Notes under the pieces: generated by a model
What the model was told of the DNA's origin: nothing
Database searches by the model: none
Seen by the model: only the letters and a program-made list of their open reading frames with translations
Translations under genes and position numbers: made by a program
Virus record (IMG/VR): IMGVR_UViG_3300027833_002080
Coordinates: 1,082-65,081 of that record
Direction: 5' to 3' (one strand)
Origin: a virus
Lineage: Duplodnaviria; Caudoviricetes
DNA length: 64,000 bases
In this document: positions 1-30,000 of the stretch, in pieces
How the letters are laid out: every line of letters begins with the position of its first letter
Numbering within the stretch: position 1 is the stretch's first letter

Positions 1-756
1 ACCACCAAACAAATCTGTTAGCATTGGTTGATACTGATTACGGGCACGGTGTTCTTGTTCTATATTCCTATTTAGTTGTGATAGCAGTATATTGATAACA
101 CCAAACTTAGCTTGCATCCACATGCAGCCTTTAGATATTTCGTTTAGTTTTTGCAATTCTGTATCAGCATTACTCAATATTAACCTAGAGTGGTCGTAAA
201 CATTTACAACCAAAGTATCAGGGTAGCTTTCTGCTATTTCAGCATTAGTACGCTTAATAAATGTTATGTCTTTAGGTACGTTATTGAAATAAATAGGATA
301 TTCAGTATAAGCTGTGACTTTCTCTTCATATAGATCATACTCGTCTTGTCTTAACTTAGTTTGTACAGATAGTAAATCCATTACCTCTTTCTTGACATCC
401 TTAGCACCAGCACGTAATATTTGCTGATGGCCAGGCATCTCGAAAGACCAGTACAATACCATTAAGTTTTTCTTTGAGTTAGTATCTAAAAGATCGAAGA
501 TCATCTGATTACTGAATGCGCTTTTACCTACACCTGGACGACCTGCTATGACATACATTTTGCCAGGTTGCAGACCACCTAATAGGTTTCTGTTTAATCT
601 TGTCCACTTAGTGGGGTAAACCACACGCTGTCCAAGCATACCCTTCTTTATCTCATTAAGTGAGGTATTTACTGAGTCTGCTATGCTGTGAAATCCTTTG
701 TCTTTAAAGAGATCTTGTGATGCGTGGTTTGGTTTTGTCTCGTGTGTCATTTTCAT
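1..756 (-). CDS. dnaB: DnaB-like replicative helicase (partial, runs off left end)
   Basis: Not in the ORF track. Manual translation gives MKMTHETKPNHASQDLF...VYPTKWTRLNRNLLGGLQPGKMYVIAGRPGVGKSAF...YWSFEMPG...FYDHSRL, with the Walker A, S-x-E-M and D-H motifs of SF4 helicases. Start is 756 or 750. Confidence 0.9.
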   Translation of the reverse strand, partial: MKMTHETKPNHASQDLFKDKGFHSIADSVNTSLNEIKKGMLGQRVVYPTKWTRLNRNLLGGLQPGKMYVIAGRPGVGKSAFSNQMIFDLLDTNSKKNLMVLYWSFEMPGHQQILRAGAKDVKKEVMDLLSVQTKLRQDEYDLYEEKVTAYTEYPIYFNNVPKDITFIKRTNAEIAESYPDTLVVNVYDHSRLILSNADTELQKLNEISKGCMWMQAKFGVINILLSQLNRNIEQEHRARNQYQPMLTDLFGG

Positions 757-1255
757 CTAAGTTTTCATACTTTTCCCAAGTATGGTTATTAATCCATGTT
801 TCTAAGTTCTGCAAATAAGCTAGGTTATTACGTTCCAACTTGAGCTGTGTATTCAGGCAAGCGATGATCTTTCTATGAACATGGGGCTTGCCGTCAACAA
901 TTCTTTTGTAACGTATTTTAGCTTTTTTATTAGACTTAGCATTAGGATCCTTAGCATGAAGGATACGAACACCCTTGTCAGAGTTTACTTTGAGAGGATA
1001 AGTTAACGTCAACTCGTTGAACATCTTGTCAAAATCAGCTAGAAATAAATCTAGAAATTTATGTCTAACAACATGATCTTCGAAGCTATCTCCGAGTTTG
1101 ACGTAACTATTCTCCTGTAATCTGTCTAAATTTGGCTTAAGATTAAGCTGTGGTAAATATGATTGACCTTTTCTGTAAACTAGATAAAGGTAGGTAAAGT
1201 CATCAGGACTCATACCTACCTCTTTAAGCATATTTAAATCTAGTTCAATAGTCAT
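704..1255 (-). CDS. Putative replisome organiser / helicase-loader-like protein
   Basis: C-terminal YLQNLETWINNHTWE resembles the phage replication-initiator tail; directly upstream of and overlapping dnaB. Confidence 0.55.
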   Translation of the reverse strand: MTIELDLNMLKEVGMSPDDFTYLYLVYRKGQSYLPQLNLKPNLDRLQENSYVKLGDSFEDHVVRHKFLDLFLADFDKMFNELTLTYPLKVNSDKGVRILHAKDPNAKSNKKAKIRYKRIVDGKPHVHRKIIACLNTQLKLERNNLAYLQNLETWINNHTWEKYENLDENDTRDKTKPRITRSL

Positions 1256-1297
1256 TGCATATAAAAGATTTTGTTATAATGGCATATAACGCATTTA

Positions 1298-1305
1298 CAA
1301 ATGTA
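1298..1305 (-). promoter_or_regulatory. Bacteroidota-type -7 promoter element TACATTTG
   Basis: Plus-strand CAAATGTA reads TACATTTG on minus, matching TAnnTTTG; intergenic, about 45 nt upstream of the 1255 start. Confidence 0.6.
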
Positions 1306-1347
1306 ATAAAATTATTTAGCATATCAAAATGTATGTTTAAATATTAT

Positions 1348-2514
1348 TTACAACCACTTAACTCCATTTAACTTTTGGACTGAATTCTTTAGCCATTTCT
1401 CTTCTTGGCTATCCTCTACATATAGTACGTACACTATCCCTGTCTTACCTTCTTTAAACCTTATCAACCTTCCAATACGTTGAACCATTGATAGTGCTTT
1501 ACTGGTTAAGCCACAGATGATTCCAAAGTTAGCATTAGGCACATCAAACCCCTGATTAAGAGCTTTAGTTGAGCACAATACATTCACTTCTTCGTCTTTA
1601 AATCTCCTTAAAGCTTCTTTACGGGCTTTTGCGGATCTCTTGCTGTGATATACTTCGGCAAGTGGGCTAACGCTAGCCGCTAACTCATCAGTAAACGAGT
1701 TCTTACCTCCAAATGTTATTATCCTCTTGTCTAAATTAGCATACACAAGCTCTCTAAACTTCTCAACCTTGTTGGTTGCGCAGTCTATTATGCTCTTGCG
1801 GTCTCGTATAGCTTTGTAGAATCCAGCAGCATGTGCTTTCATCTCTCCACTACTAGTCGAAGACGCTAGTATTATGCGTGCAGCATTGAATGCATCATGA
1901 CCAAGTGCTAGCTTGTGTTTAACAAACCTTCTATTGATCTTGCTGTATTCTGAACGTTCTTCGCCTGTGAGTTTTATTGGTACACAATGAATCTCATAAG
2001 GCGCAACTAGTCCTAAGTCTACACACTCATCTAAAGTTATTGTATAGATGGTTGGTGCTAATTTAAATAAGAGCAATCTGTACTCATCCTCTTCAGGCGG
2101 AGTAGCAGTCATACATAGAAGACGGTCATACTGATTGTTCTTAAAGAACTTGCGGTACTTAGGTGAGAGACCAAGATGGATCTCATCACATACTACAATA
2201 TCATAATGATTGTCTACTAATTTGTATGCGCTCTGGTAACATATTATATCCACACGGTCGAGGCACTGCTCAACTCCCCACTTGATGAACTCCTCTTTGA
2301 ACTGATCTTGCAGTTGTACTGTTGGTACAAGCAAGAGTGCTCTGCCTTTAGGAATCTGTTTGAGTACATAGTTGATTGCAACTACGCCACATCTAGATTT
2401 ACCAAAGCCAGTACCAGCTATTATACTTCCTCTAAAGTTGTGAGAAGCCCACGCATTTAACGCGGCTCGTTGTTCAGTGTCTTTGACTGCGTGTGTTTTT
2501 ATGCTAGTGTCCAT
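1348..2514 (-). CDS. Superfamily 2 (DExH) helicase
   Basis: Motif I AGTGFGKS, motif II CDEIH, motif III TAT, motif V GFDVP, motif VI QRIGR. Confidence 0.92.
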   Translation of the reverse strand: MDTSIKTHAVKDTEQRAALNAWASHNFRGSIIAGTGFGKSRCGVVAINYVLKQIPKGRALLLVPTVQLQDQFKEEFIKWGVEQCLDRVDIICYQSAYKLVDNHYDIVVCDEIHLGLSPKYRKFFKNNQYDRLLCMTATPPEEDEYRLLLFKLAPTIYTITLDECVDLGLVAPYEIHCVPIKLTGEERSEYSKINRRFVKHKLALGHDAFNAARIILASSTSSGEMKAHAAGFYKAIRDRKSIIDCATNKVEKFRELVYANLDKRIITFGGKNSFTDELAASVSPLAEVYHSKRSAKARKEALRRFKDEEVNVLCSTKALNQGFDVPNANFGIICGLTSKALSMVQRIGRLIRFKEGKTGIVYVLYVEDSQEEKWLKNSVQKLNGVKWL

Positions 2515-2759
2515 ACGGTTACTGTCCTATTAGTTTCAGGGTCAACTTTAGTTGAGTTCGAGGTTACAATACCACGATCAACTAGCTCTGTTACTCTACC
2601 AGTCACACGATTGATTGGCCATCCTAATGACTTGGACAAATCTTTGTTGCTTGCTTCCCCCAATATCTTGAGGGCATGCGCAACTGCTCTTTGTTTAGCA
2701 CCTAGCTTTTGCTTGATACTATCAAAGGCATCTACTTGAGTTTTTCTAACTTTATTCAT
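2499..2759 (-). CDS. Winged helix-turn-helix DNA-binding protein
   Basis: ASNKDLSKSLGWPINRVTGRVTELVDRGIV followed by a beta wing. Confidence 0.75.
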   Translation of the reverse strand: MNKVRKTQVDAFDSIKQKLGAKQRAVAHALKILGEASNKDLSKSLGWPINRVTGRVTELVDRGIVTSNSTKVDPETNRTVTVWTLA

Positions 2760-3111
2760 GGATTATTTGTTTACAGTGTTCACATGTTTTAACATATGTT
2801 CTCTCTCTTAGTTTATCTTTTATCTCTAATTCGATATAGTTCCTAGTTATACTTAGTCTCTTGCTTACAGCAACTAGTCCTTGCATATTCTTAGTAGCAT
2901 ATACAACAGTAGAGTGGTCTCGCTTGATAGCTTCACCTATCTCTCCTGTAGTCTTTTTAGTATGCATGCGTGCGAGAAGGCAAAACATTTGTCTTGCTTC
3001 ACACACATCACGCGTCCTATCTCTACTCAAGATTTGATGCTTTTGCACCCTCATCTCTTTGCGTATAGCTTTGAACAATATTTCGAATGGAGTCAATACT
3101 ATTTCTCCCAT
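2752..3111 (-). CDS. Stand-alone DnaA C-terminal (domain IV) DNA-binding protein
   Basis: SRDRTRDVCEARQMFCLLAR...TTGEIGEAIKRDHSTVVYA matches the DnaA domain IV signature; C-terminal CEHC. Confidence 0.85.
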   Translation of the reverse strand: MGEIVLTPFEILFKAIRKEMRVQKHQILSRDRTRDVCEARQMFCLLARMHTKKTTGEIGEAIKRDHSTVVYATKNMQGLVAVSKRLSITRNYIELEIKDKLRERTYVKTCEHCKQIIHE

Positions 3112-4988
3112 ACTTTGCTTGCGTTTACATCTGCTTTAAGCAGACCGTTAGTAACTACTTTGTTTGCTGCTTTCTCCATTAGATGTGTAAGAGTTTGTGA
3201 CCATTTCTCAATGTAATCGTCTCTACAAATACTATCTACTTGATCATGCACAGTCATCACTATCTTAACCGGTAAATTCTTATCAGCCAAGTACTCATAA
3301 ATATACACAAGTGCAAGCTTAGTCATATCCGCTGATGCACCTTGAATTGGTGTATTCTTGGATGCACGCTCAATACTACTAAGCTCCATTGATGCTGATT
3401 CATCTGACCATATCTTTGGGAACCAATTAACAAACCAACGACGGCGGTTAAATGGTGGGAAAGTCTTGATATAACCATAATGCTTACCGAAGTCAGCTAG
3501 TTTCTCAAGGAACCCTTTGATGTTAGGGAACGCAGTGAAGTAATCTTCAATGAGTTGCTTTGCATCTTCTTTAGATATTTGTAATGTATCAGCAAGCTTG
3601 TTAGGTCCCATACCATATGCTAGACCAAAGTTAATAGTCTTTACATTAGTACGCAACTTCTTGTGTGTTGGACAGTCACATTTGCTTTTGTTGACCATGT
3701 AAGCACAGTCATCTTCAGCATAGTTATTCCACCCATCTTTGTACACAAGCTCAGCACAGGTTGAGTGTAAGTCCTGACCTTCTTCTAACGCTTTAATCCA
3801 CACGGGATCTTGGCTACCAAAAGCTATGACATTCAGTTCTTGGGAAGCATAGTCAGCACTCACAAACGACCATCCATCAGGTGCAATGAAGCAGTTTCTA
3901 AACGAATTGTCTGCAGGTATTTGCTGCATGTTTGGTCTAGAACTACTAACACGCCCAGTGTCAAGTATTTGATTAAAGCTTGTGTGTATTTTACCACTCT
4001 TACGCACATTCTTAAGGAAAGCCTCACCATAGCTTGTAGCTATCTTCATCTTCTCTTTGTATGTGATGTAATTATTGATAAGAGGGAACTTGTTTCTGTA
4101 TTTATACAGATTTTTACCGTTTACATTCTCTAGTTTAGGTACAATGCATTGAAATACATCTAGCACTTGTTTAGGTGAATCCCAATTAACATCTATTTGT
4201 TTGTCAACAGTGTCAAATAAATCTCCTTGTACAAATGTAGGTATGAATTTCTGCATTCTATGGTCCTCTATTATATGCTGATTAAGTGTGTCTTTAAGTG
4301 ATACAGCTTTTACAAGCGATTTCTTACTTAAGTCAACCCACTTATCTTTATCTAATTCAAGGCCATTATATTCTATATCAGCAAATGCTAACACAGATTT
4401 ATTCTCTAGATCTACTACATTTTGTAACTTATTTTTTATGATGAATGATTCTTGTTTATCTCTAATTTCTATAAGATATTTAACATCATCAGCACCATAA
4501 ACTATTTGGTCACTAGTAAATCTTAGATTATAATTATTTATAAATGAAGATTGAGCTACTTTACTAATCTCTATGTTTAAATGACGCAAAAGCGTATTTT
4601 TAAGACTAGCACTTAAACCCTTACCACAATTTATAACTTTCTCTACAAGCATAGTATCGTAAACGTTGTTACATATAATACCTGAATGAGAACGAATAAA
4701 GTTTATGTCAAATTTAGAGTTATGGAAGATTTTGAGTATCGTGGGACATTCTAGTATTTTTGTAAATACAGAAATCGGATGAACTCGTAAATCTATTACA
4801 TATTGATGAATTTCATCACCAATTTGAAACATAGTCATTTGATCTGACGTAAAATCGAGACCTGTAGTCTCGGTATCAACAGCTAGAACAGTTTTACTGT
4901 TACAATAATTAACAGCATCCTCTAGATTTGCGTTAAAGAAACGCTCTTCTGAAGGATGATGTGAATTATCTCCTACGAAATATCTCAT
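3099..4988 (-). CDS. polA: DNA polymerase family A with 3'-5' exonuclease
   Basis: Exonuclease motifs DTETTG, HNSKFD, YGADD; TGRVSSSRPNMQQIP; motif A DYASQE; motif B RTNVKTINFGLAYG; motif C VHDQ. Confidence 0.97.
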   Translation of the reverse strand: MRYFVGDNSHHPSEERFFNANLEDAVNYCNSKTVLAVDTETTGLDFTSDQMTMFQIGDEIHQYVIDLRVHPISVFTKILECPTILKIFHNSKFDINFIRSHSGIICNNVYDTMLVEKVINCGKGLSASLKNTLLRHLNIEISKVAQSSFINNYNLRFTSDQIVYGADDVKYLIEIRDKQESFIIKNKLQNVVDLENKSVLAFADIEYNGLELDKDKWVDLSKKSLVKAVSLKDTLNQHIIEDHRMQKFIPTFVQGDLFDTVDKQIDVNWDSPKQVLDVFQCIVPKLENVNGKNLYKYRNKFPLINNYITYKEKMKIATSYGEAFLKNVRKSGKIHTSFNQILDTGRVSSSRPNMQQIPADNSFRNCFIAPDGWSFVSADYASQELNVIAFGSQDPVWIKALEEGQDLHSTCAELVYKDGWNNYAEDDCAYMVNKSKCDCPTHKKLRTNVKTINFGLAYGMGPNKLADTLQISKEDAKQLIEDYFTAFPNIKGFLEKLADFGKHYGYIKTFPPFNRRRWFVNWFPKIWSDESASMELSSIERASKNTPIQGASADMTKLALVYIYEYLADKNLPVKIVMTVHDQVDSICRDDYIEKWSQTLTHLMEKAANKVVTNGLLKADVNASKVWEK

Positions 4989-5218
4989 TCGAAAGGGAAA
5001 TCAGGCTCTGTTTGATTTTGAATCATATGCTCTTCATATTCAGGCATACAATGTTTGTCAACATAAGCACATACAAATTTAGCATAGTTTACATCTATTT
5101 TGCTTTTGTTGAAATAAAAACTTTGTTTTTTATTTTTAACAGCTGATGCATAACTAATTTTAAATATTTCATAGCTATTGTCTGCTACCATGTGGTAGAT
5201 CCATTTCATGTGTCCCAT
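4985..5218 (-). CDS. Hypothetical protein
   Basis: 77-aa ORF with a 4-nt overlap to polA. Confidence 0.7.
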   Translation of the reverse strand: MGHMKWIYHMVADNSYEIFKISYASAVKNKKQSFYFNKSKIDVNYAKFVCAYVDKHCMPEYEEHMIQNQTEPDFPFE

Positions 5219-5233
5219 AATAGATAGGTATAA

Positions 5234-5300
5234 AGTATTTGGGCGTTACCAAACATTAAAATCATTCCACTAATTTGCAATTAGTAACGCCCAAAATACT
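5234..5300. repeat. Intergenic inverted repeat (about 16-bp arms)
   Basis: AGTATTTGGGCGTTAC (5234-5249) and GTAACGCCCAAAATACT (5284-5300). Confidence 0.75.
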
Positions 5301-5301
5301 A

Positions 5302-5892
5302 TTATATTAACTCATCCATTGATGTGAATGCTTCTGCCTTTGCATTAGCTGTTAAGCTAGTTGAGTCAGGACTTAGGAACACATGCATGTCCGAAGTATC
5401 TTTGTTAGTCAAAGTTACTTCTGTGTTGCTGAAGATATAATCTCCATCATGTGTTATATAATCACCATCTTTACCTTTACGTTTAGCAGCACGTTCTAAG
5501 TTTGCAGCTTGATATTCAGTAGGCTCAGTTGTCTCATTAACAAGTATGCGTACACGCATATTGTTAATCATTGGATTTAACACATTTAGTTCTAGCATTT
5601 CTCGCTTTTCATTGATGTACCAACCTGCATTTGCACCGAAGTTAATACCAAAGTATTCTTCTGCATCTGTAGGTTCTGCGGACATCCAAGCACGACGAGC
5701 GTTAGAACTAAAACGATCATCTGATTTGTTTAACATAGCTAAAAGATTTACACCTTTATCACTTGTTGATACAACTTCTGCAAATTCTAATTGAATTTTA
5801 CCACCGTTGATTTTTCTAGCAGATACTAATAAAGTATTGCCTTTTTCTAAGGTATCTAATGTACCTGTTGCTAATTGATTTGGATTGTTCAT
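5302..5892 (-). CDS. Putative single-stranded DNA-binding protein
   Basis: Beta-rich 196-aa protein with an acidic C-terminus (MDELI), upstream of polA. Inferred from position and composition only. Confidence 0.45.
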   Translation of the reverse strand: MNNPNQLATGTLDTLEKGNTLLVSARKINGGKIQLEFAEVVSTSDKGVNLLAMLNKSDDRFSSNARRAWMSAEPTDAEEYFGINFGANAGWYINEKREMLELNVLNPMINNMRVRILVNETTEPTEYQAANLERAAKRKGKDGDYITHDGDYIFSNTEVTLTNKDTSDMHVFLSPDSTSLTANAKAEAFTSMDELI

Positions 5893-5951
5893 GATGTTTT
5901 CATGATTATTTAAGTTTATGCTAGTTTCGAAGGTATACTAGCAACCTTTTT

Positions 5952-5994
5952 AGTTGAGTAGTGGGAATCGAACCCACATTAACCATTTACTCAT
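5952..5994 (-). ncRNA. Anticodon-less tRNA-like element (acceptor stem plus T-arm)
   Basis: Minus strand reads TGAGTA-AATGGTTAAT-GTGGG-TTCGATT-CCCAC-TACTCA-ACT. Confidence 0.55.
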
Positions 5995-6106
5995 TTTGTT
6001 CTTCTTCGTGGCATTGTTGACAAGTATGAACTTCATCACAAGTACACGTTAGCTCAGGACTTATACTATATAAGTCCCAAGCAAATTGTGCATCTTCAAA
6101 GAACAT
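5987..6106 (-). CDS. Small Cys-rich hypothetical protein (39 aa)
   Basis: Manual translation MFFEDAQFAWDLYSISPELTCTCDEVHTCQQCHEEEQNE; start overlaps the stop of the upstream gene. Confidence 0.55.
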   Translation of the reverse strand: MFFEDAQFAWDLYSISPELTCTCDEVHTCQQCHEEEQNE

Positions 6107-6474
6107 TAGTCTTCTAGATCTATTTTACCTACTTTTTTAGTAAAGTTAGATTCCATTTTTATTATGTCTTTATTTTTAAGACCATAAGGCATAATATCGT
6201 GGTAATCTTCTTTTGTAGTAGAGTCTATTGCTTTTTCTACAAATCTTGACTTAGCCTTTTCGATTTTTTGTAACATACTAGTTACATCTCGCAGGTCTTT
6301 ATGATCTTGACCTTGTTGGGAAATTATACCTATTAATGTAGATACATGTTGTCTTAATAGATTGATGATTTCTGATGGATCATCGTGAGAATTGTATCTT
6401 ATTGATGTAAATTCTGGGCTTTTAGAGATCTCTTCTACAACGTTGTAGATTGTTTGGTTTTTAGTTTTTCGCAT
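6106..6474 (-). CDS. Hypothetical protein
   Basis: 122-aa ORF in a tightly packed operon. Confidence 0.75.
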   Translation of the reverse strand: MRKTKNQTIYNVVEEISKSPEFTSIRYNSHDDPSEIINLLRQHVSTLIGIISQQGQDHKDLRDVTSMLQKIEKAKSRFVEKAIDSTTKEDYHDIMPYGLKNKDIIKMESNFTKKVGKIDLED

Positions 6475-6476
6475 GA

Positions 6477-6647
6477 TTATTCTTCTTTATAAAAGTCTGT
6501 TAATGTTTGTTTAGTTATTGGATATGTAGTTGTTACGTCGTTAACGTGGTCACAATTTGTGCATTCTGCAAGTGTATCATGACCAACGTGTTCAAGAGTA
6601 TGGCCTTTATCGTGGCCACACTCTGAACAGTTTATAGTTGCTATCAT
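6477..6647 (-). CDS. Small zinc-ribbon protein (56 aa)
   Basis: Manual translation MIATINCSECGHDKGHTLEHVGHDTLAECTNCDHVND...; two CxxC pairs; fills the gap between its neighbours. Confidence 0.7.
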   Translation of the reverse strand: MIATINCSECGHDKGHTLEHVGHDTLAECTNCDHVNDVTTTYPITKQTLTDFYKEE

Positions 6648-6850
6648 TTAGCATGATGTTTAAGTCTGCTAATTAGTTTATCTAATTTAGCTTTCTCTTT
6701 TACAGCACCACTAGGATGATTAGTTTGTAAAGCTTGTCTAATCTGAACATAACCTTTAAGACCATGTTCATTTAAGAAATCATTACGTAGTTTAGCACGT
6801 TCTTGTGCATTTTCTTGTCTAATTGCTTTTTTATACTTTGGATGTGCCAT
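6644..6850 (-). CDS. Hypothetical basic protein
   Basis: 68-aa ORF with operon-like spacing. Confidence 0.7.
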   Translation of the reverse strand: MAHPKYKKAIRQENAQERAKLRNDFLNEHGLKGYVQIRQALQTNHPSGAVKEKAKLDKLISRLKHHAK

Positions 6851-6852
6851 AA

Positions 6853-7164
6853 TTAGTTTTTTTGTTGTTTATACCATGCTAATTCTATTACCATAAAAGG
6901 TAATACTATTTGATAGGAGAATGAATATCCTTTAGTTCTTTCTACTGCTATTGCAAATCCTGCAATCCAACCAATTGTAAGTTGAGGTTTGAAATCCCAT
7001 TTACGTGTTTGTAGTAAATAACTAGCATAAGTTATAACAAGCCATATACTCCATAGTAGAGTACATATTAATTTGTCAGGCATTTCTGCTAAGTTTAGTT
7101 TGTCTGTCAATACTATAAGAGAGACAGTTAACAATCCAAGAACAATGTAGTTTAGTCTTTTCAT
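6853..7164 (-). CDS. Hypothetical membrane protein
   Basis: Several hydrophobic segments in 103 aa. Confidence 0.7.
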   Translation of the reverse strand: MKRLNYIVLGLLTVSLIVLTDKLNLAEMPDKLICTLLWSIWLVITYASYLLQTRKWDFKPQLTIGWIAGFAIAVERTKGYSFSYQIVLPFMVIELAWYKQQKN

Positions 7165-7241
7165 TTTGTTAATGATTAAGTTAATTTAGGTTAAGGCAAT
7201 GAGAGTAACAAGCGATTAGCTTGCTACTGTTTATTGTGTTA

Positions 7242-7610
7242 TTATCTGTTGAAATATTCTTCTATTGTTACGTATCTATCCTTATCAAAGTAAGAATAGT
7301 CTGGAAATATAAATGGAAAAGAACGTTGACTTGGAATTTCAACATAATCTTCGCTTTCTTTGTAAGGGTCTTTTAAATACATTTCTCCATGTACACCCAT
7401 ATACATTTCTTTTGCATCTTCAATTGAAGTTCCTTTGTCAAGTTCTGTTATATAATCTTCCTTTAGTTCAGGAAATTTAATAGTGTTAGAACCTGTTGAG
7501 ATAACTGTTATTTCGCAACGATGAAACAATAAGTGTGCAATTCTTTCTGATGGCCAACCACCTTTATGTGTTTCTATTTCTAAATTTGTTTTGTTGATGA
7601 TAAAGTACAT
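7242..7610 (-). CDS. Hypothetical protein
   Basis: 122-aa ORF with ATG start and A-rich leader. Confidence 0.7.
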   Translation of the reverse strand: MYFIINKTNLEIETHKGGWPSERIAHLLFHRCEITVISTGSNTIKFPELKEDYITELDKGTSIEDAKEMYMGVHGEMYLKDPYKESEDYVEIPSQRSFPFIFPDYSYFDKDRYVTIEEYFNR

Positions 7611-7729
7611 GATTTGTTATTTTTAGTGAGTTACGCAAACTCCACACCTCAACCCTTGTCCGTAGGATGGTTTTTTATATTTACGAGGTGCTTCTGTTTG
7701 CAACCAAGAGCGTTTAGTCTTTGGTTAGA

Positions 7730-7960
7730 TTATTTATGTAGTTCAATGTATTTCTTAGCTTCTTTATTAATATCTATGAAATCACTATGATTTAAACCAC
7801 ACATAGATAGTTCATTCATTAATTCCATTTTCTTTCGTTTAAATGGATGTATATGAGCTAGTTTATCTTCTAGTTTTTCTTCTAGGTTTAGTATGTTTAC
7901 TGTTAAATGAAATAAGTCATAGATGTTTGTTCCTTTGTAGGAGATGTAATTGTGTGTCAT
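7730..7960 (-). CDS. Hypothetical protein
   Basis: 76-aa ORF with ATG start. Confidence 0.65.
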   Translation of the reverse strand: MTHNYISYKGTNIYDLFHLTVNILNLEEKLEDKLAHIHPFKRKKMELMNELSMCGLNHSDFIDINKEAKKYIELHK

Positions 7961-8071
7961 AAGCGTTTGTGTTATAGTAGTTTAATGTTAGTTAAATGGT
8001 TTAGTTGTGGTTTTATGGAATATGAGGCGAATGTGCCTTGGATGACACACTCTCTCACTATTATAAACAAA

Positions 8072-8097: not shown

Positions 8098-8395
8098 AGA
8101 AGAGATGGTCGTAAGTATTTACGACTTTCTCAAGATCGAGATTGAACTCTTTGAGTTCTTTCTCGGTTGGGATACCTGATGGTTTCATGTATCCTTTCGT
8201 GTCAGTTATGATACGAACAAATTGACCCACTACATATGTATGGGTCTTTTTGAAGATTAGTAATGAATCTTCACACTTGGTGCGTGAGCATCTAAAGTGT
8301 ATAACAAAGGTGACCTTGGTCTTCTTTGAAGGTACAGATTCTATTGATAGGATCTTACCATAATGGTGCTTAGCACCTTTCTTTTTGTTTGCCAT
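8096..8395 (-). CDS. Hypothetical basic protein, first leftward gene, monocistronic
   Basis: 99-aa ORF with ATG start and its own terminator. Confidence 0.7.
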   Translation of the reverse strand: MANKKKGAKHHYGKILSIESVPSKKTKVTFVIHFRCSRTKCEDSLLIFKKTHTYVVGQFVRIITDTKGYMKPSGIPTEKELKEFNLDLEKVVNTYDHLF

Positions 8396-8428
8396 AGCAA
8401 ATAAAAATTTAAATTAGTGGAACGATTA

Positions 8429-8530
8429 ACCCCGGGGGGTGGCCAGAGGCCAAAAAATGATGGGGGTTGCTGTTTTAGTTGGTTACCGCATTCAACCCTA
8501 AAACAAATTTTAAAATTTTTCCCCCAAAAA
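8429..8530. other. GC-rich palindromic junction between divergent modules (candidate terminus, pac site or origin)
   Basis: CCCCGGGG palindrome, TGGCC-aga-GGCCA, TGTTTTAG...CTAAAACA and GGGGG...CCCCC in an otherwise AT-rich genome, at the strand switch. Confidence 0.4.
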
Positions 8531-8553
8531 TTTTTTAATCTTACCAGGATATT

Positions 8554-8561
8554 TATCTTTG
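8554..8561 (+). promoter_or_regulatory. Bacteroidota-type -7 element TATCTTTG
   Basis: Exact TAnnTTTG match at the start of the rightward module. Confidence 0.65.
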
Positions 8562-8565
8562 TAAG

Positions 8566-8706
8566 GACAAGGAATTTCGCTATCCTAAGAGTTTTATAGG
8601 AACGGTTGGCTAGGGCAGGTGTCATTTGATACTGTGTTTTACCATTGCACCATTACAACCAGGTACGGAAAATACTAAAGACCTCGCTATCAACGGGGTC
8701 TTTTTT
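8566..8706 (+). ncRNA. Candidate structured RNA / attenuator leader (about 140 nt)
   Basis: Lies between a promoter and an intrinsic terminator; stems TCCTA/TAGGA, GGTTG/CAACC, GTGTCA/TGATAC. Confidence 0.5.
8677..8706 (+). terminator. Intrinsic terminator
   Basis: AAAGACCTCG-ctatcaa-CGGGGTC-TTTTTT. Confidence 0.8.
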
Positions 8707-8727
8707 AACCCCTAAATAAAAAAAATT

Positions 8728-8877
8728 ATGGCATGTAAGTGTGGAAAAAATGAAGAATGTAAATGTCAACAAAAAGACAATAATGCTTTTGATGACTATA
8801 TGAAAGATTTAACAGAAAAAGATCAACCAACTTGTTCTATAGAGGATCAAGAAAATTGTGAAAACTGCGGAAGTTAA
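8728..8877 (+). CDS. Cys-rich mini-protein (49 aa) ending in an RNR-alpha-tail-like motif
   Basis: Manual translation MACKCGKNEECKCQQKDNNAFDDYMKDLTEKDQPTCSIEDQENCENCGS; A-rich Bacteroidota-style leader. Confidence 0.75.
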   Translation: MACKCGKNEECKCQQKDNNAFDDYMKDLTEKDQPTCSIEDQENCENCGS

Positions 8878-8888
8878 TATTAATTGAT

Positions 8889-8896
8889 TATATTTG
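8889..8896 (+). promoter_or_regulatory. Bacteroidota-type -7 element TATATTTG
   Basis: TAnnTTTG match immediately before a long non-coding segment. Confidence 0.65.
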
Positions 8897-8897
8897 C

Positions 8898-9158
8898 ACA
8901 GAAGCACTTTATAAGTATCACCCCTGGGTAGCCAAAAAAGGGGTCAGACGTTGGATTGTAGTTCCTAAATAAGGAATAGAGTTTTCTCCAACAGCTTCGA
9001 AAGAGTAACGTATAGGCTTTAGTTAGGATAAATTGCACACAGGTAAGTGCGGTGAATTAACACCAGTATTATTATCCTTGGGTCCCCAATGGGAGCACTG
9101 CTAACAGCTGAAATCACACTTGAAATCCAAAATCCAAGGGGGATAACTCTGTCTTTTT
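8898..9158 (+). ncRNA. Candidate large structured ncRNA (about 260 nt)
   Basis: No ORF of 60 aa or more in the track; nested stems CCCCT/AGGGG, GTTGGA/TCCAAC, TTCCT/AGGAA, GGATAA/TTATCC, GCAC/GTGC, GGTG/CACC, CCTTGG/CCAAGG, ACAGA/TCTGT, then a T-run. Confidence 0.55.
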
Positions 9159-9177
9159 GGATCCTTTTTAAAAAACC

Positions 9178-9209
9178 TTTGTATTGTAGCAGAAACTTTT
9201 ATATATTTG
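9178..9209 (+). promoter_or_regulatory. Bacteroidota primary-sigma promoter TTTG-N20-TATATTTG
   Basis: TTTG at 9178-9181, 20-nt spacer, TATATTTG at 9202-9209; 21 nt before the groES ATG. Confidence 0.8.
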
Positions 9210-9230
9210 TGGAAACTAAAAATATATACG

Positions 9231-9497
9231 ATGAAATTTACACCAAACAGTAACTGGGTAGTTCTACCCGATCCAACTTCAAACGAAACTGAATCAGGAA
9301 TACTATTAGATGAGACTACAGTTAGATCTCGTGCTAAGAGTAATATTCTTAAAGTGCTAGCCGTAGGCGGTCAATGCCATTTTGTAAAGGTAGGAGATAC
9401 TGCTATAATAGATCCTAGAACAGAAGCTATTCAAATGCCTATTGAAGGTCAAAACTGCTTATTAATTAATGAGTATCAAATTATAGGTAAAGAATGA
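9231..9497 (+). CDS. groES: Co-chaperonin GroES (Cpn10)-like protein
   Basis: MKFTPNSNWVVL...ETESGILL mobile loop, VLAVG, VKVGD, LLINEYQIIG. ATG 9231 is preferred over TTG 9207. Confidence 0.88.
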   Translation: MKFTPNSNWVVLPDPTSNETESGILLDETTVRSRAKSNILKVLAVGGQCHFVKVGDTAIIDPRTEAIQMPIEGQNCLLINEYQIIGKE

Positions 9498-9682
9498 TAA
9501 CCAGTAGCGTAGAGGTAGATACTGTATACGAATGGTTAACTACTGTACTTAAATTTGAAGAAAAAATAACTGATCTTGATGCAGTAGGAATGGTTAAAGG
9601 ATGGAATACAGCATTAAGTATATCTCCTACTGGTTTTGTAGTTAGCATCGAAGTAGAAATGGACGAAGATTATGAGCAATAA
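9494..9682 (+). CDS. Hypothetical protein
   Basis: 62-aa ORF overlapping both neighbours. Confidence 0.7.
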   Translation: MITSSVEVDTVYEWLTTVLKFEEKITDLDAVGMVKGWNTALSISPTGFVVSIEVEMDEDYEQ

Positions 9683-10010
9683 GAAAAGAATAACTGTCAA
9701 AATAGATACAACTTATAAGTATGTAAGATTGTGGAACGGTCTTTTTAATTTAACACCTAAAGAGTTACGAATTCTATCCGAGTTTATAGATGCTAATAAA
9801 GAAGTTACTTTAGAAATGTCTAATGTGTGTCATGTAGCAATTAAAAAGCTTGTAGCAAAAAAATTAAATATTGTAGATTACAATACTTTAAATAACTACG
9901 TAAAGCGATTTAAAAAGAAAGGAGTCATTATTAAAAAAGGTAAAGACTATTCGTTTAATAAACTTCTTGATCCGGCTACGGCAAGTGTAGAAATATTTAT
10001 AACTAAATGA
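9672..10010 (+). CDS. Winged-HTH DNA-binding protein (RepL-like)
   Basis: LTPKELRIL...KKLVAKKLNIVDYNTLNNYVKRFKKKGVIIK wHTH pattern; usual crAss-like position upstream of terL. Confidence 0.65.
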   Translation: MSNKKRITVKIDTTYKYVRLWNGLFNLTPKELRILSEFIDANKEVTLEMSNVCHVAIKKLVAKKLNIVDYNTLNNYVKRFKKKGVIIKKGKDYSFNKLLDPATASVEIFITK

Positions 10011-24037: not shown

Positions 24038-27000
24038 ATGGCTGCAGAACAACAAATTCTACGTAATCAATTTAATTTAAAAAGTAATACAATAGAACTA
24101 CTAAATGGGTCTAAACCATTAGAAGTAGGTAAAGCGTATGCTTTAATTTTACCTTTTAAAACCGATAGCGGAGAGCTTTACAGACAAAAGGATTTTACAA
24201 TTCCTAATACTGAAAAAGAAGATGCGTCTCGAGTTCTTAGATTTGTTGACTTTGTACCTTTTATTAAATATTGTACGTTTGCAGTTCAAGCTATTAGAAA
24301 CGTAAAAGGCACTAATCAATACATTGGAAGCCTTTATTTACGTCAAGCAGATTATGCAACTCAACAAGAAATATCAAGATACACAGAGGCTTTAAAGCAT
24401 TGGACTAGAGGAATAATCGATGTAGTTGACAGAGATGGTAACGACATTGAAACATTACCTATTCTTACAACATTAGCTGAATTAACTAAAATTAAATCTA
24501 TTGGTAAAGATTCTTGTATTAATAGTTTTGATAATGGGTTTACCACTAAAGAAGGATTTACAGGAAGTTGTATTAGTTTTAATGACCCTCTTATAGTAAG
24601 AAAATGTACAGATCCAGCAGCTTTAAATTATAATACTGTAAAACTTATACCAGGTGAAACTGATGATTGCGCGTATGAACCGGGATCTAAAGCTCATGAT
24701 GACGCTACTACTGTCAACATTGCTGGTGGTATATACCATTTGTTGTTAGCTAATACAGGTGTTTATGGGCAATATGAGTTTTGGGTAATCCATGGAAGTA
24801 TGTCAAGTCCTATCACAGATTTATCTTGGGATACAAACTTAAGCGGATCTTTCACTGAAACTCACGCAGGAATAAATGGCCCTACAGTAACGTATGGCCC
24901 TGGAACGCACACTATTTCTGTTATAGTATCCCTAGGTGACAGTCCTTCTGGGTGGGATTTCATTAACAATGAAGTTCAGCTAACTATAGATCTTGTTGTT
25001 GAAGCTAATGTGGCAGGATGTACAGATTTTAATGCATTTAATTATAATCCGAACGCTACTTCTGATGACGGGTCTTGTGAGGCTGTTCTTCGAGGGTGTA
25101 TGGATAATGGATCTTATTCTACTACTACAACGTTAGTAAATAACCAAGGAAATAATAACACTTCTTTTACTATTACTTCTCCTGTTCCAGGAACGGCAGC
25201 AACTAATTACAATTCTAACGTTAATGTTCATGATTGGAGGTCGTGTGAGTATACAGGTTGTACTGACCCTGAAGCAGATAACACTTTAGTAAACAATCCT
25301 TTAATAGTAGCAACAAATGTAACTCCGTGCACAGATAATTGCTGTGAATATACTGAAGATGTAAACGGATGTACTGATCCAGGAACTTTAGCTGCATCTA
25401 CATACAACCCAAGTTCAGTGTATTCAACGTATGTAACTCCCGAAGCAAATATCGCAGATGTAAATCCAGCGTATAGTAATTTTAATTACAACCCTTATGC
25501 TACTGTAGACGATGGTACTTGTTTTGCAAAAAAACCGGGATGCATGGACCCTGAAGCATCAAATTATAGTGTGCCAATTGGTAATCCTCAATTTGATGTA
25601 AATTGGCATTTACAAAGTCTTTGTCAATATGAATATTGTGCTGATGTAAACGCAAATAATGATGTACAAAGTGCAGATCATGATGTTTATACAATGTCGT
25701 GGACTCAAGGTAATTTTTGGGATGAATCTTTAGCTACTGCAAACGGGTTGACAATAACTCCGACACATGATAGTTATTTAGACAACAACTCGTTGTGTAC
25801 TTTTGATGTAGATGTTTTAGATATATGTAATATAAATTCTGAATTTGACGACTACGGTAATAATATTGATGCTGGTGTAATAGGGTATGCTAATACTGCT
25901 ACTGCTGGAGAATTAGCTACAACTACTAGTGGAGATGCATGTTTAGGTCAATTAACTGAAACTGCAAGTACAACTGTTAATGGTTTTACTTACAATACTC
26001 CAACTGCAGAAAAAGTTACTTTACAAGTTATTGATCAAGATAATCCTGTTTTATTTTTAACAGATCCTGAAAAATATGGAACGCTTGTTTACACTTACAC
26101 TGGTAGTACAGGCGGAGGAGCAAATATTACTTTACCTAATATTGACGAGTCATCTGCTACCACGTTAGCTGGGCAATTATCAGCTGCTGGATATAATAGC
26201 GATTTAGATCCTTCAGTGTATTTTTATTTTAGAATTGTAGATACTGTTGAGAATTCTAATACAGGGCTTACATTAAACCCTGCAATTGATGAGCCTGTAA
26301 AGCATCAATTTAATAATGCAGAAATAGTAGAAGTAAGATATTCTGATGGAGCTTATTACTACTTACCTTCAACAGCTCCTGGAACTGTATCAACATTTCA
26401 AGCAGGATCTGCTAACACTACAATACCTACAGGTTACGCTCCTGGAACTATCAATGGTTTAGTTTTAAGTAGTACGGCTACTAATGCAGGTGGAGGAGTA
26501 GATTGTAATCATGCTACAATAGATGAAGGTACTGCTGCAGGTCAGTACATGTATACAGTGTACAGAATTAAAATGACCGCTCCTTGTAGCTTAAATGCTA
26601 TAAACTTTTTAATTGGGTATGACGCTGAAGCAGCATATCCTAATTTAAATATTCTTGCTGACCCAGCATTTAACGGGGAGACGCTTGGTTGTACAGATCC
26701 GATAGCCGATAATTATGATGAAGACGCAACTTATAGTGTTTCAGTCCCAATGAATAATTGGTCTAATTACCTTGCTAATGGAGGATGTTTCATAACAGGA
26801 TGTATCGATGAGTACTACAGCGGTAATTTAGATAATAATATTGTTGTTAGTGCAAATACACTTTCAGGTACTGATATACCAGTGCAAGTTGGACAATATT
26901 TAGAAGAATATGATGGCGTTATTTATAAAATTTATAATAGTCAAGCTTACATATGTCAATTAAATGATTATTTAATTGCTAACAGTGATCCACTATTTGA

Positions 27001-30000
27001 TCTTACTGCTGTATTTGATTTAACTTATTTACCAAACTCTTTTGATGTAATACCTAACGAATGGACAGTACCTTCAGCTGAAGACTTAATATCAATGTCT
27101 ACAAACATTGCTTCAAGTGGATCTGGATTTTTAGGGGAGTTTAATTTTACTTCTGGAGAGTATTGGAGTAGCAGTCTTTCAGTATCAAATCCTAATCAGT
27201 ACGGACAAACTTATAACATAGTAACTAATCCTGCTACTACAGTAGATAGAGCGAATACTCAAAAGTACCGAATTAGATTACATAAAATAATACCATTAGC
27301 TGATATAATAAATGGCGAGGTAGATATTACTGATTGCGGAGAAAATGAAGAAGTTATAGGTTGTACAGACGAGACTGCAACGAATTATAACCCAGAAGCA
27401 ACAACAAACATTAATCCTATTGCAGGAGATACAGATCACGTGTGTCAATATGAATTTACAGTAAGTGATTATGAGGACGAATTATTGCCTATTATTCTTA
27501 ATACTGAGGGCAATACTTTTGAGACATTAGAAGAATATGAAGAAAACGTAGACTCATATTTTAATACTATAGGATTTACTGATGACCTTTTATTGGCTCT
27601 TTATGGAGATCATATAAGTGGGTATACCTCTGCTGACGCAAGTATAGGTGTAACTATCCCTGCTCTTCCTTGTGTTTCAGAAATATATTCTGGGCTTAAA
27701 AATGAAGTATATACTAGCGGTAGTTATGATTTTAATTATACATCGCATGATCCTCGAGGCGCTAGTTCTAAAATTCAAGTAATTGGGCAGCAGCTGCTAG
27801 GCTCTGCAGAAAGAAACTACAAAGTATATTTAAATAATCCAACAAAGGATGGTATTTTAAAGTCTACTATTGATGCGGGAGCTCACTTATCGGCTACGCC
27901 TTCAACATATTTATTAGCAGATGAAAATACTGTTATTTCTAGTATATACCCGCCTTCTCTGGCAGAAGCATTAGCACAAGAATTTAACAATCAAGGGTAC
28001 CAAGGTAACATAAGTTTAAGTAACCTTGTAACTTATAGATTTAGGTTTGATAAAAATATAGTATTAAAAGATGGTGTAACTCATGGCGATATAATAAGTT
28101 ATCTACTTAATGATACTTTTTTAAATACCTCGGAAGCTATAATTAAAGATGTTAAAGGGAATCCTTTATGGCCAGTATTTGACCATAATGATTTACATAA
28201 GGATATGGCAACTTATCCTTCCCTATCCGTCTTAGCTGGAGAAGATAGACGTTTTCATTTTGGGTTTACTCCAAATTCTAAATTTGAAGAGTACGGGCAT
28301 TATGTAACAAATGGAGTAAATTTAATAACATCAAATTCTAATTTTGCTTCTAATTTAAACGATTGGACAGTTATTCCTGGCTCTGCTAATAGTACGTTAG
28401 CTTGGAATGCTTCTTATAGTGGGTCAGCACAGAGAAGCCTTAGTACCGATGCATTAGGAAATAGAACTGGATTAAAGAGAAGTATTGCGGTAGTTAGTGG
28501 GAACAAATATAAAATTACATATACGCGCGCAGTCGTTAATGTAGAAGCTGGTCAAACGCAGGCTACTAAAACTTATGTTGAAGTTCAGACTGCAGGTAAT
28601 AATATTGGAGAGTTTACAGAAATAGCTGTACAGAATGAAACTAGCCCTAATCTTGTAACTACATCTGATACGTTTACTTATACTGGACTTGGCTCTACAG
28701 TAGATTTATATTTTTACTTTGACTCTCAAGTACAAGGATTTTTAAGTTCTTTTGAAGTTGAAAAAGTAATTCCATATCCTAATGGGTATGTTTATTCTGA
28801 AGATCCGTGTGATGACACTAAAGTTCCTTCTGCATTTGTATATGATGTTGTATTAGATATATCTAATGGATTAGGAGAGTTAGACTTTAGTCCGTATGTT
28901 GAATATGTAGATCCAGAAAATACTGGATGTATGGATGCTACGGCATTAAATTATGATGAAGATGCTACATTTACAAATGGTAATTTAGCAGATTGTTTAT
29001 ATTACTTAGATAATTGTGCAGGTACTGGAGTAGATATAGAGGTAGATGTTGAGTCAGCAGATGAAGGATGTGGAAGAGAAATTACAGTTAAAGTTACAGC
29101 TTGTGATAATGTTGTGAGTAATGCTACTATTAGTATTATTGTGCTACAAAAAATAACAGATAATACAGGGGTATCACCGATAACCTCATTTGAACCTATA
29201 TTTACAATTGGGGATATAGAGCCTTGTATTGACGGTGTATCAAACACTGATGGTGTTGCAATATTAGCAGGGTTTACTTATGACCCAACTACTACTCAGC
29301 TTTTTGCTGGAGCAAACGCAGAGAGTAATGTTACTTATATTACTGGGCAAACTGCAGGAGCAATTCCAATAAACACATATCACCCTGAATTTCAAATACA
29401 ATACAGTGAATTTTATTTAGATCCAGAAAGTGGAGAAACTGAAGAATATTTATTTGATTACAATCCTGCTACAGACTTCCAAAGTGTAAACTTTACAATT
29501 GATCCAATTATAAATGGGTGTACAAATGATAGTTCATTTAATTACAATTCTAACGCTACATGCGATGATGGAACTTGTGTGGAGGTAGCAGAAGGTTGTA
29601 CTGATGTAGCAGCATTTAATTATGATCCATTAGCTAATACAGACGAAGGATGTATACCAGTTATTGAGGGATGTACAGATATTGAAGCATACAACACTAA
29701 TTATACTACAGACGAAGTTGCATCTACAAGTCCTGCGGGATCTAATTATCTTTATGGTGACATACAAAATTTACCAGCTCTTCCAGATGTAGGAAATTTA
29801 TCTATAAACACTCCAGGCAACGAAGACCTTTGTTTTTATTGTACTCAATTACAGGTTTCAGATCAAGGTGAGCACATTGCACAAGAGATTACTACTTTAC
29901 CTATTTCTCCAGATTTAGTTACTACAAAGCAGATTACATTTACATGGAATTCTACCATTAATGTAGATAACCAAGATGTTACATTAGCAGATAGCGATGG

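Follow-up and report, generated by a model that had tools for sequence, protein, structure and literature searches.

A 64,000-nucleotide (nt) stretch of viral DNA (Duplodnaviria; Caudoviricetes; IMG/VR record IMGVR_UViG_3300027833_002080, positions 1,082 to 65,081), hereafter the window, carries upstream of a GroES-like gene an element that very probably represents a real family of structured RNA. The RNA family occurs in phages of marine Bacteroidota, mostly with crAss-like genome architecture. As far as sequence comparison can tell, the family is new: no described RNA family was matched. The initial annotation, made from the window alone, had proposed an undescribed, promoter-driven, multibranched phage RNA of about 260 nt. 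This proposal was supported: the covariance model R1, which was built in this analysis and has 255 positions and 50 pairs, matched the window at 8905-9159 (249.7 bits, E 7.6e-68), covariation among relatives was strong, and neither Rfam nor ARAGORN gave a match. The RNA and the features around it are as follows.

8889-8896 (+): -7 promoter box TATATTTG of the Bacteroidota type TAnnTTTG, read from the sequence, in front of the RNA
8897-9160 (+): structured RNA of about 255-265 nt, ends approximate
9178-9209 (+): bipartite promoter TTTG-N20-TATATTTG of the GroES-like gene, found by pattern match
9231-9497 (+): GroES-like gene (PHROG 3188, E 1.4e-11; Pfam Cpn10, 20.1 bits with a cut-off of 21.1)

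The RNA is present as a single copy in the 65-kb record. It is located in a 354-nt gap (8878-9230) between an open reading frame (ORF) for a Cys-rich protein of 49 amino acids (aa; 8728-8877) and the GroES-like gene; the sole + strand ORF across this gap is a 54-aa frame at 9089-9253. The GC content peaks at 0.415 in 8900-9099 and is 0.27-0.36 in the flanks, which agrees with the enrichment described initially. All of the complementary pairs that had been named are present in the sequence.

Relatives were collected in several steps. The GroES-like protein was used as the first bait, and 6 viral loci were obtained. IMG/VR was scanned with a 15-base pattern from the conserved core (the region of hairpin P7, described below), which gave 105 matching stretches, nearly all of them homologous to the window by blastn across about 8916-9150 with identities of 71-90%. 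The distinct viral sequences numbered 89, and R1 found exactly one match in each of them, with scores of 119-285 bits. When contigs of marine metagenomes were scanned with a pattern in the same way, at least 119 stretches matched. Eighty metagenome loci were searched with R1, and matches were obtained in 72 of them; Tara Oceans contigs are included in these marine metagenome members. The viral and metagenome collections overlap, and the 161 rows correspond to 123 distinct 3' tails.

Four alignments were prepared. Alignment A1 contained 80 of the 89 distinct viral sequences, the other 9 being cut by contig ends. For RNAalifold on the L-INS-i alignment and for the conserved-stack search, 7 further rows with a large insertion in domain 1 were excluded, and from the remaining 73 we selected 46 representatives with less than 93% identity, which were aligned by MAFFT (A2). 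Alignments A3 (89 rows) and A4 (71 distinct metagenome rows) were fitted to R1 and hence lean towards the model, whereas A2 does not. In A2, 91.2% of the cells were paired, compared with 35.5-48.9% when the registers were slid, and 29 of the 52 pairs were double-changed, compared with 4-13; the covariation score was 0.278, and the maximum for slid registers was 0.123. The corresponding values were 90.9% versus 36.3-50.1%, 29/50 versus 3-12 and 0.294 versus 0.126 for A3, and 90.3% versus 34.8-55.9%, 37/50 versus 10-21 and 0.364 versus 0.138 for A4. None of 500 shuffles reached the covariation score in any of the three alignments. Conservation and covariation in relatives, which had been put forward as the check to be made, were thus observed.

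The strand was also analyzed. The fold is 90.9% paired when it is read as the + strand and 82.6% when it is read as the - strand, and G-U pairs account for 11.8% of the cells versus 3.5% for A-C. This excess of G-U over A-C shows that the fold is read from the + strand. Runs of at least 60 open codons were present on the + strand in only 1 of 82 full-length copies and on the - strand in 25 of the 82. No conserved ORF was found in the RNA among these 82 copies. The element is a + strand RNA and not a protein gene.

When the RNA of the window was folded by itself, the + strand had a minimum free energy (MFE) of -67.9 kcal/mol, with a z-score of -0.63; 53 of 200 shuffled sequences folded equally well or better. 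The - strand gave a z-score of -0.30 and was uninformative in the same way. The initial annotation had stated that a folding energy no better than shuffled controls would speak against the RNA. Such an energy was indeed obtained, and it is overridden by the comparative evidence. Thus, the case for the RNA rests wholly on its relatives.

The structure model was assembled from RNAalifold, mutual information (MI) and the conserved-stack search. For the 80 sequences RNAalifold predicted 29 pairs, and compensatory changes were seen in 15. The predicted fold consists of two three-way-junction domains, followed by hairpin P9 and the invariant CAAGGGGGA. Domain 1 comprises P1, P2, P3 and P3a, and domain 2 comprises P4, P5, P6, P7 and P8. 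Several loops and joining strands are nearly invariant across the family. The elements of the fold are located in the window as follows.

8901-8905 (GAAGC) with 8994-8998 (GCUUC) (+): P1, closing domain 1; 5 of 5 pairs double-changed in A2
8906-8916 (+): P1a, hairpin ACUU-UAU-AAGU, in a subset only and outside R1; read from the alignments
8921-8924 (CCCC) with 8940-8943 (GGGG) (+): hairpin P2, from covariation
8950-8955 (GUUGGA) with 8987-8992 (UCCAAC) (+): P3, enclosing P3a; 100% of cells paired
8961-8977 (8961-8966 with 8972-8977) (+): P3a, hairpin GUUCCU-AAAUA-AGGAAU, from covariation
8978-8989 (+): near-invariant block AGAGUUUUCUCC, 3' side of the P3 internal loop
9002-9005 (AGAG) with 9017-9020 (CUUU) (+): P4a, tentative hairpin with the loop GUAUA, from variant strings
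9019-9023 with 9100-9104, outer part 9015-9017 with 9107-9109 (+): P4, closing domain 2, from covariation
9025-9031 (AGGAUAA) with 9072-9078 (UUAUCCU) (+): P5, bearing P6 and P7; 99.8% paired
9035-9050 (9035-9038 with 9047-9050) (+): P6, hairpin GCAC-ACAGGUAA-GUGC, from metagenome covariation
9051-9064 (9051-9054 with 9061-9064) (+): P7, hairpin GGUG-AAUUAA-CACC; 100% paired
9083-9094 (9083-9086 with 9091-9094) (+): P8, hairpin UCCC-CAAU-GGGA, from MI
9119-9122 (CUUG) with 9135-9138 (CAAG) (+): hairpin P9; 86.5% paired, 3 of 4 pairs double-changed
9135-9143 (+): near-invariant CAAGGGGGA, G244-G246 invariant
9141-9154 (+): P10, tentative short 3' hairpin, GGAUA with UGUCU, from pairing counts

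Domain 1: The majority register of P1 has the variants GCAAC/GUUGC, CCAAC/GUUGG and GUAAU/AUUAC, and in the subclade of the window GAAGC/GCUUC, GAGAC/GUCUC and GAGGC/GCCUC were read by eye. P1a varies as ACUC/GAGU and ACAC/GUGU, and divergent members carry CAC-GCAA-GUG or CAUC-ACCA-GAUG. The outer pair of P2 is UA in 50, CG in 30 and GC in 2 sequences, and the inner pair is CG in 69 and UA in 12. The third pair of P3 is CG (58), UA (18) or GC (7), and the inner GGA/UCC is without variation. P3a shows the strongest covariation in the MAFFT alignment, with 125 double-change cells and the top MI pair; its AAAUA loop is conserved. None of the 46 rows departs from the stretch T86-C93 (UUUUCUCC), which is also retained in the most divergent members and in a copy from a bacterial metagenome-assembled genome (MAG).

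Domain 2: P4a varies as GAG/CUC, GAAC/GUUC, UAGC/GCUA, UAGU/ACUA, AGG/CCU and CGG/CCG. Its column counts are weak owing to register shifts (43-86 of 89 paired per position). The 3' strand of P4a is shared with the outer P4, so that the two compete, and compensatory variants were found in both. P4 is paired in 97.3% of the cells, with double changes in 4 of 5 pairs in the viral set and in 5 of 5 in the metagenome set. The innermost pair of P5 is CG (36), GC (36), AU (10) or GU (7). The GCAC/GUGC of P6 is near-invariant in the viral set, whereas 4 of 4 pairs are double-changed in the metagenome set, where the outer pair is GC (41), AU (20) or UA (6); the loop sequence AGGUA is retained in divergent members. 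Conservation within the family is highest in P7, the second pair of which is GU in 47 and GC in 41. In P8, the pair 9085-9093 has the second highest MI and is 100% Watson-Crick with 4 pair types; a variable loop length depresses the counts of P8 in the covariance-model alignment.

Divergent members preserve these helices with other sequences: P1 is GUAUCC/GGAUAC or ACCC/GGGU, P4 is AUUGUUA/UAACAAU, P5 is GGGUUGAC/GUCAACCC or UGGACAC/GUGUCCA, and P6 is ACAC/GUGU or AGGA/UCCU. Among the helices that had been named from the window alone, CCCC/GGGG, GTTGGA/TCCAAC, TTCCT/AGGAA, GGATAA/TTATCC and GGTG/CACC are therefore kept with compensatory or wobble changes, and GCAC/GTGC is kept in the manner described for P6. 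An isolated long-range pair, 9010 with 9114/9115, joins the base at the start of the GUAUA loop to the C or U in GAAAUC and is canonical in 88 of 89 rows (GC 57, AU 21, GU 8, CG 2, the GU rows being counted as Watson-Crick). This covarying pair suggests a tertiary contact and a compact tertiary fold.

The 3' part of the RNA is less clear-cut. P10 is paired in 79.6% of the cells, versus 47.0% and 54.4% in slid registers, and has no double changes. A further pairing, P11 (AGUU/AACU plus UUCUCC/GGGGGA), is 85.6-93.7% paired, with one-sided variation only. The candidate partners of CAAGGGGGA, namely UUCUCC (93.7% paired, no variation), the CCCC of P2 and the UCC of P5, are indistinguishable. In place of P3, RNAalifold on the L-INS-i alignment proposed UCUCC/GGGGG; as neither strand varies, the alignment does not decide between the two. 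The initial annotation had proposed mutually exclusive folds for the 3' CCAAGGGGGAUAA, and these were not upheld: the first alternative was paired in 69.6% of the cells and the second in 59.7%, neither with compensation. The ACAGA/TCTGT pairing proposed for the ends is outside R1 and was spotted by eye, in shifted registers, in near relatives of the window only. In the MFE fold, the subclade of the window has a long 3' hairpin and then CCUUUUU.

We compared the element with known RNAs. Rfam 15 (4227 models) gave no match in the whole 64-kb window at the gathering thresholds. At E <= 10, seven weak matches appeared in 8300-9300, all of them in 8301-8731 and none inside 8889-9160; the Rfam check suggested initially therefore left the RNA without a known family. 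ARAGORN found no tRNA or transfer-messenger RNA (tmRNA) gene in the whole window, and the same tool detects the tmRNA of Cellulophaga phage phi14:2. No description of the RNA was found in literature searches. Three further classes were considered and rejected. A group I intron does not fit, as RF00028 was not matched, the upstream ORF is closed by a stop codon of its own at 8877, and groES begins with an ATG behind a separate promoter. The supported fold has five branch points and is not the long rod with a central bubble of 6S RNA, for which Rfam also gave no match. For the template RNA of a diversity-generating retroelement or a retron RNA, the copy number is one in the 65-kb record, and no reverse-transcriptase family was found in the neighbouring proteins scanned.

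Promoters were examined on both sides of the RNA. TAnnTTTG, which we take to be the -7 promoter box of Bacteroidota, stands in the 60 nt that precede the model in 70 of the 89 copies, and in 50 of these at -9. The box claimed at 8889 is thus present in the window and recurs in relatives; no TTTG was found 17-23 nt upstream of the TATATTTG at 8889-8896. The bipartite pattern, to which the groES promoter belongs, was found 11 times in the window versus 4.21 expected, and 0 of 100 shuffles reached 11. In 63 of 86 loci a TAnnTTTG box also stands 25-34 nt ahead of the ATG that opens the next ORF, and the separate groES promoter that had been predicted was accordingly recovered. A hairpin with a U-tract follows the RNA in 16 of 123 distinct tails, in 3 of them with a free energy of -6 or lower (shuffled tails, 1 and 0). 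Copies from one divergent lineage (L213, L215 and L230) end in CCCUCAAGGG plus U6, which resembles an attenuator.

RNA libraries were also searched, and 13 RNA runs contained part of the stretch. Four of these runs, from 4 studies, were examined, other runs with shares below 0.2 being set aside, and all four have contigs on the RNA. Contigs from three RNA libraries (8926-9396, 9139-9291 and 9009-9216) span the RNA into groES or its promoter. In the four runs, no contig covered 8300-8854 or anything past 9427, a lack of cover only, which is evidence neither way. The claim that the RNA is its own transcript was weakened by the scarcity of terminators and by these bridging contigs.

The distribution of the family reaches beyond the viral records. 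A Flavobacteriales MAG carries a copy on a 182-kb contig (L292:2393-2699, +; R1 63 bits, E 1e-15). This copy lies within a 1-kb gap, 155 nt 5' of a type I restriction-modification operon (hsdM, hsdS), with an XRE-type helix-turn-helix (HTH) gene close by. The first pattern gave no match in bacterial genomes. With the second, 30 stretches were obtained, roughly as many as chance alone would give by an approximate estimate, and R1 confirmed only the MAG copy. An order-level scan of 87 genomes gave 2 matches, of which the second (G063, 26.5 bits) is doubtful and lacks domain 2. By R1, the more distant GroES loci L005, L006 and L007 are without the RNA: a 14-bit match in L005/L006 was dismissed because it lies inside an ORF and has no domain 2, and the best match in L007 was 9.2 bits on the opposite strand. 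No match to 8400-9500 was found by blastn among 50,697 cultured-phage records.

The RNA is more conserved than the gene behind it. Mean identity to the window was 78.6% for the RNA and 67.6% for the groES DNA, and the RNA was higher in 65 of 69 loci; loci with no detected 75-110-aa ORF, or with an RNA shorter than 225 nt, were dropped from this comparison. L002 and L003 share a 351-nt block (8880-9230) with the window at 100% identity, although the flanking genes have diverged (the small ORF is 90-94% identical, and the GroES-like protein of L003 is 84% identical). An identical block in diverged backgrounds looks like a recent exchange of the RNA module between phages. The RNA-library contig X1 has 23 differences from the window, every one of them at or past 9254.

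The window has a crAss-like layout: helicase and DNA polymerase genes are read leftward, and terminase, portal and capsid genes, together with two giant ORFs, are read rightward. Identity of the terminase to those of Crassvirales is about 41%, and all 161 matches stay below 60%. The giant ORFs, at 24038-38545 (+; 4835 aa) and 47980-54000 (+; 2006 aa), fit a crAss-like phage. The RNA is located at the turn between the leftward and rightward blocks, and in most loci it adjoins a divergent junction with no other element ahead of it on its strand. A GroES-like ORF follows it in 87 of 89 viral loci, and a conserved set comes after groES: genes for a 110-aa protein, a DUF6171 protein, an HU-like protein and a 173-aa protein. 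In L213 and L230 the RNA is followed by a 120-aa ORF, a 104-aa ORF and a third ORF (a DUF285 protein in L230), and in L223 by an HTH-like ORF. Thus, the link between the RNA and groES is phyletic and not universal. In some loci extra small ORFs, such as a Cys-rich zinc-ribbon-like one, lie between the RNA and groES. In cultured phages, tblastn with GroES found 8 records at about 40% identity, which are 4 Cellulophaga phages filed twice; in phi18:3 no gap was found upstream of groES.

Several other features were observed near the RNA. Cys-rich ORFs (CxC/CxxC) adjoin it, upstream in the window (8728-8877, +) and, as a different zinc-ribbon-like ORF, between the RNA and groES in some relatives, with L008, L016, L030 and L086 as examples of such loci; no Pfam or PHROG family was found for them. 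The gene of the 110-aa protein (9672-10010, +), two genes downstream, encodes a LTPKELRILSEF-type motif that looks like an HTH by eye, and its only Pfam match is a weak one to SieB. The HTH-like, DUF6171 and HU-like genes suggest that a cluster of regulatory genes follows the RNA. Another small RNA may be encoded at 8555-8712 (+). Behind a TATCTTTG box at about 8562-8569, some 135 nt are conserved and end in an intrinsic terminator (8679-8708; GACCUCG-CUAUCAA-CGGGGUC plus U6), in which relatives show compensatory changes; conservation of this candidate is limited to the subclade of the window, where 7 sequences were aligned. Paired G-runs (GGGGGG ... GGGGG) occur 5' of the RNA in AT-rich non-coding DNA, at 8431-8470 in the subclade of the window and at about 2221-2262 in L292, and may be due to chance.

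As for the function, our leading reading, held tentatively, is that the RNA is a trans-acting functional RNA. Transcription would probably start a few bases past the TAnnTTTG box, which would place the 5' end directly in P1. The RNA would be transcribed where the rightward block of structural and regulatory genes begins, and transcription would often continue into the next gene. The folded RNA itself would be the functional product, stable and acting in trans, and its invariant loops would bind a conserved partner, which could be the host RNA polymerase, the ribosome, a phage protein or copies of the RNA itself. We favour this reading because a promoter box of its own precedes the RNA, the 5' end would lie buried in P1, the loops are invariant, a tertiary pair is indicated and the RNA is indifferent to the gene behind it. 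Its independence of the neighbour is seen in the promoter of groES itself, present in at least 63 of 86 loci, and in the other genes that follow the RNA in divergent members and in the MAG copy. Several results weigh against it. Folding of the lone sequence was no better than that of shuffled controls, no partner protein is common to all contexts of the RNA, and none of the 50,697 cultured-phage records carries it. The canonical terminator is absent from most tails (107 of 123). The RNA is on the same strand as, and directly 5' of, the next gene in every locus examined (89 viral rows, 72 metagenome rows and the MAG copy), and in L008-type and L213-type loci the next ORF begins 25-45 nt past the RNA without an intervening promoter box. 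The contigs that bridge the RNA and groES mean that the RNA may be a leader and not a discrete product, and RNA-library contigs are uninformative on transcript ends, strand and level.

Most of these last results suit a cis-acting 5' leader of the rightward transcript, indifferent to the following gene and working by processive antitermination, as put and EAR do, or by attenuation. We regard such a leader as possible, with a lower probability than a trans-acting RNA. The attenuator-like end of the L213 type, the strand competition between P4a and the outer P4 and the very long operon behind the RNA, including the 4835-aa ORF, also point to it. However, the conserved promoter between the RNA and groES means that most groES transcripts need not include the RNA. 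No conserved terminator/antiterminator pair or sequestration of a start site was seen, the sequence conservation of the loops is above that usual for leaders, and the alternative pairings of the 3' G-run are not conserved. The absence of a terminator also speaks for a ribozyme, as a discrete RNA would then need a processed 3' end: the conserved core, with its many invariant unpaired junction nucleotides, would cleave itself, for example to free the RNA from a longer transcript, or catalyze another reaction. However, no Rfam ribozyme family was matched even at E <= 10, and no conserved signature of a cleavage site was recognised; we consider a ribozyme quite unlikely. An RNA that primes replication at an origin or forms an R-loop there, as ColE1 RNA II or the T4 oriF/oriG transcripts do, is unlikely. 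Such an RNA would be transcribed from the TAnnTTTG box, and its G-run would anchor an RNA-DNA hybrid beside an AT-rich stretch and prime replication, which fits the invariant CAAGGGGGA followed by AT-rich sequence and the location where the leftward replication genes give way to rightward genes. The cumulative skew minima (AT at 8639, GC at 6289) coincide with this change of gene orientation; they are thus not independent evidence and were not used. Against a primer stand the co-directional genes upstream of the RNA in L206, the MAG copy before a restriction-modification operon and the two ornate junction domains with invariant loops, which priming would not need. A DNA-level element, such as a site for protein binding or recombination, or a conserved block that recent recombination has spread, in either case without any RNA function, would account for the identical 351-nt block with differing flanks and for the mosaic of contig X1, which fits recent exchange. 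It is very improbable, as changes that preserve pairing, including G-U pairs possible only on the + strand, are unexpected for a DNA site, and distant members preserve the helices with different sequences.

A trans-acting RNA would have wider meaning if its partner belonged to the host. The family might be a new class of ornate RNA targeting a core machine of the Bacteroidota host, carried by a module that moves between phage lineages and into bacterial defence islands, which we consider rather doubtful at present. One candidate would be a put-like RNA that makes the host polymerase terminator-resistant across the 50-kb structural operon. Another would be an RNA directed to the ribosome via the invariant AAGGGGGA, which resembles a Shine-Dalgarno (SD) sequence, and the anti-SD-like UUUUCUCC. 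Action on the polymerase or the ribosome of the host, if it is real, would make the RNA the first of its kind described for the phylum. Large, highly conserved RNAs without known relatives are rare, and earlier ones gave rise to new biochemistry, with riboswitches, ribozymes and RNA-only assemblies as examples. The present RNA is abundant in ocean viromes and marine metagenomes, and its carriers include the marine crAss-like branch of Bacteroidota phages, the gene regulation of which is poorly known. With a covariance model, a supported secondary structure and clear invariant positions, work with synthetic RNA is feasible without a cultured phage.

The RNA shares features with several known systems. 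Like riboswitches and leader RNAs, it has a 5' position, conserved junction nucleotides, a possible competition between P4a and P4 and, in one divergent lineage, a terminator-like end. In contrast to them, it has no conserved expression platform in the 123 tails and 86 loci considered above, a promoter intervenes before groES, and the downstream gene class varies (groES, zinc-ribbon-like, HTH-like, 120-aa unknown and hsdM). Like the put RNA of HK022 and the EAR of Bacillus, which lie just past a promoter at the head of a long operon, are indifferent to the following gene and have no terminator of their own, the RNA is promoter-proximal to an operon with terminase, portal, capsid and the 4835-aa ORF. 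It is much larger and more ornate than put and EAR, a second promoter follows it, and neither sequence nor model matched. The pRNA of phi29, which corresponds to the packaging-related option of the initial annotation, is likewise a promoter-driven, phage-encoded, untranslated multi-helix RNA of a few hundred bases or less. The P7 and P4a loops contain the short palindromes AAUU and UAUA, noted by eye, and kissing would be possible in principle. However, the present RNA had no Rfam match, belongs to another phage group and has two three-way junctions. GOLLD and ROOL have been described as ornate phage-associated RNAs that form RNA-only assemblies (PMC12286853). They resemble the present RNA as orphan, highly conserved and multibranched RNAs of phages or prophages without an obligatory protein partner. 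They are far longer than its approximately 255 nt, and no Rfam model matched it.

The nearest analogy is with the two abundant, unexplained intergenic RNAs of Cellulophaga phage phi14:2. The preprint on this phage describes abundant long non-coding RNAs, leaves their function undetermined, and ascribes the long non-coding regions, which are in the early block, to a virion polymerase (10.1101/2020.03.07.982082). Here, a host-type promoter box precedes the RNA instead. Homology was not detected: the best E value was 1.82 by blastn, R1 gave no match at E <= 10 across the whole record, and with the filters off the best score in 1-8000 was 11 bits (E 0.079). In the phi14:2 record (NC_021806; L162:4031-4500, +), ARAGORN found a tmRNA gene with the tag GSSVQKLAMVA*, in the long intergenic region separating g004 from g006, which may be one of the two unexplained long non-coding RNAs of the preprint. 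The likeness is one of setting: phi14:2 is a marine Bacteroidota phage with crAss-like architecture, and in both it and the window long non-coding stretches lie on both sides of a small gene.

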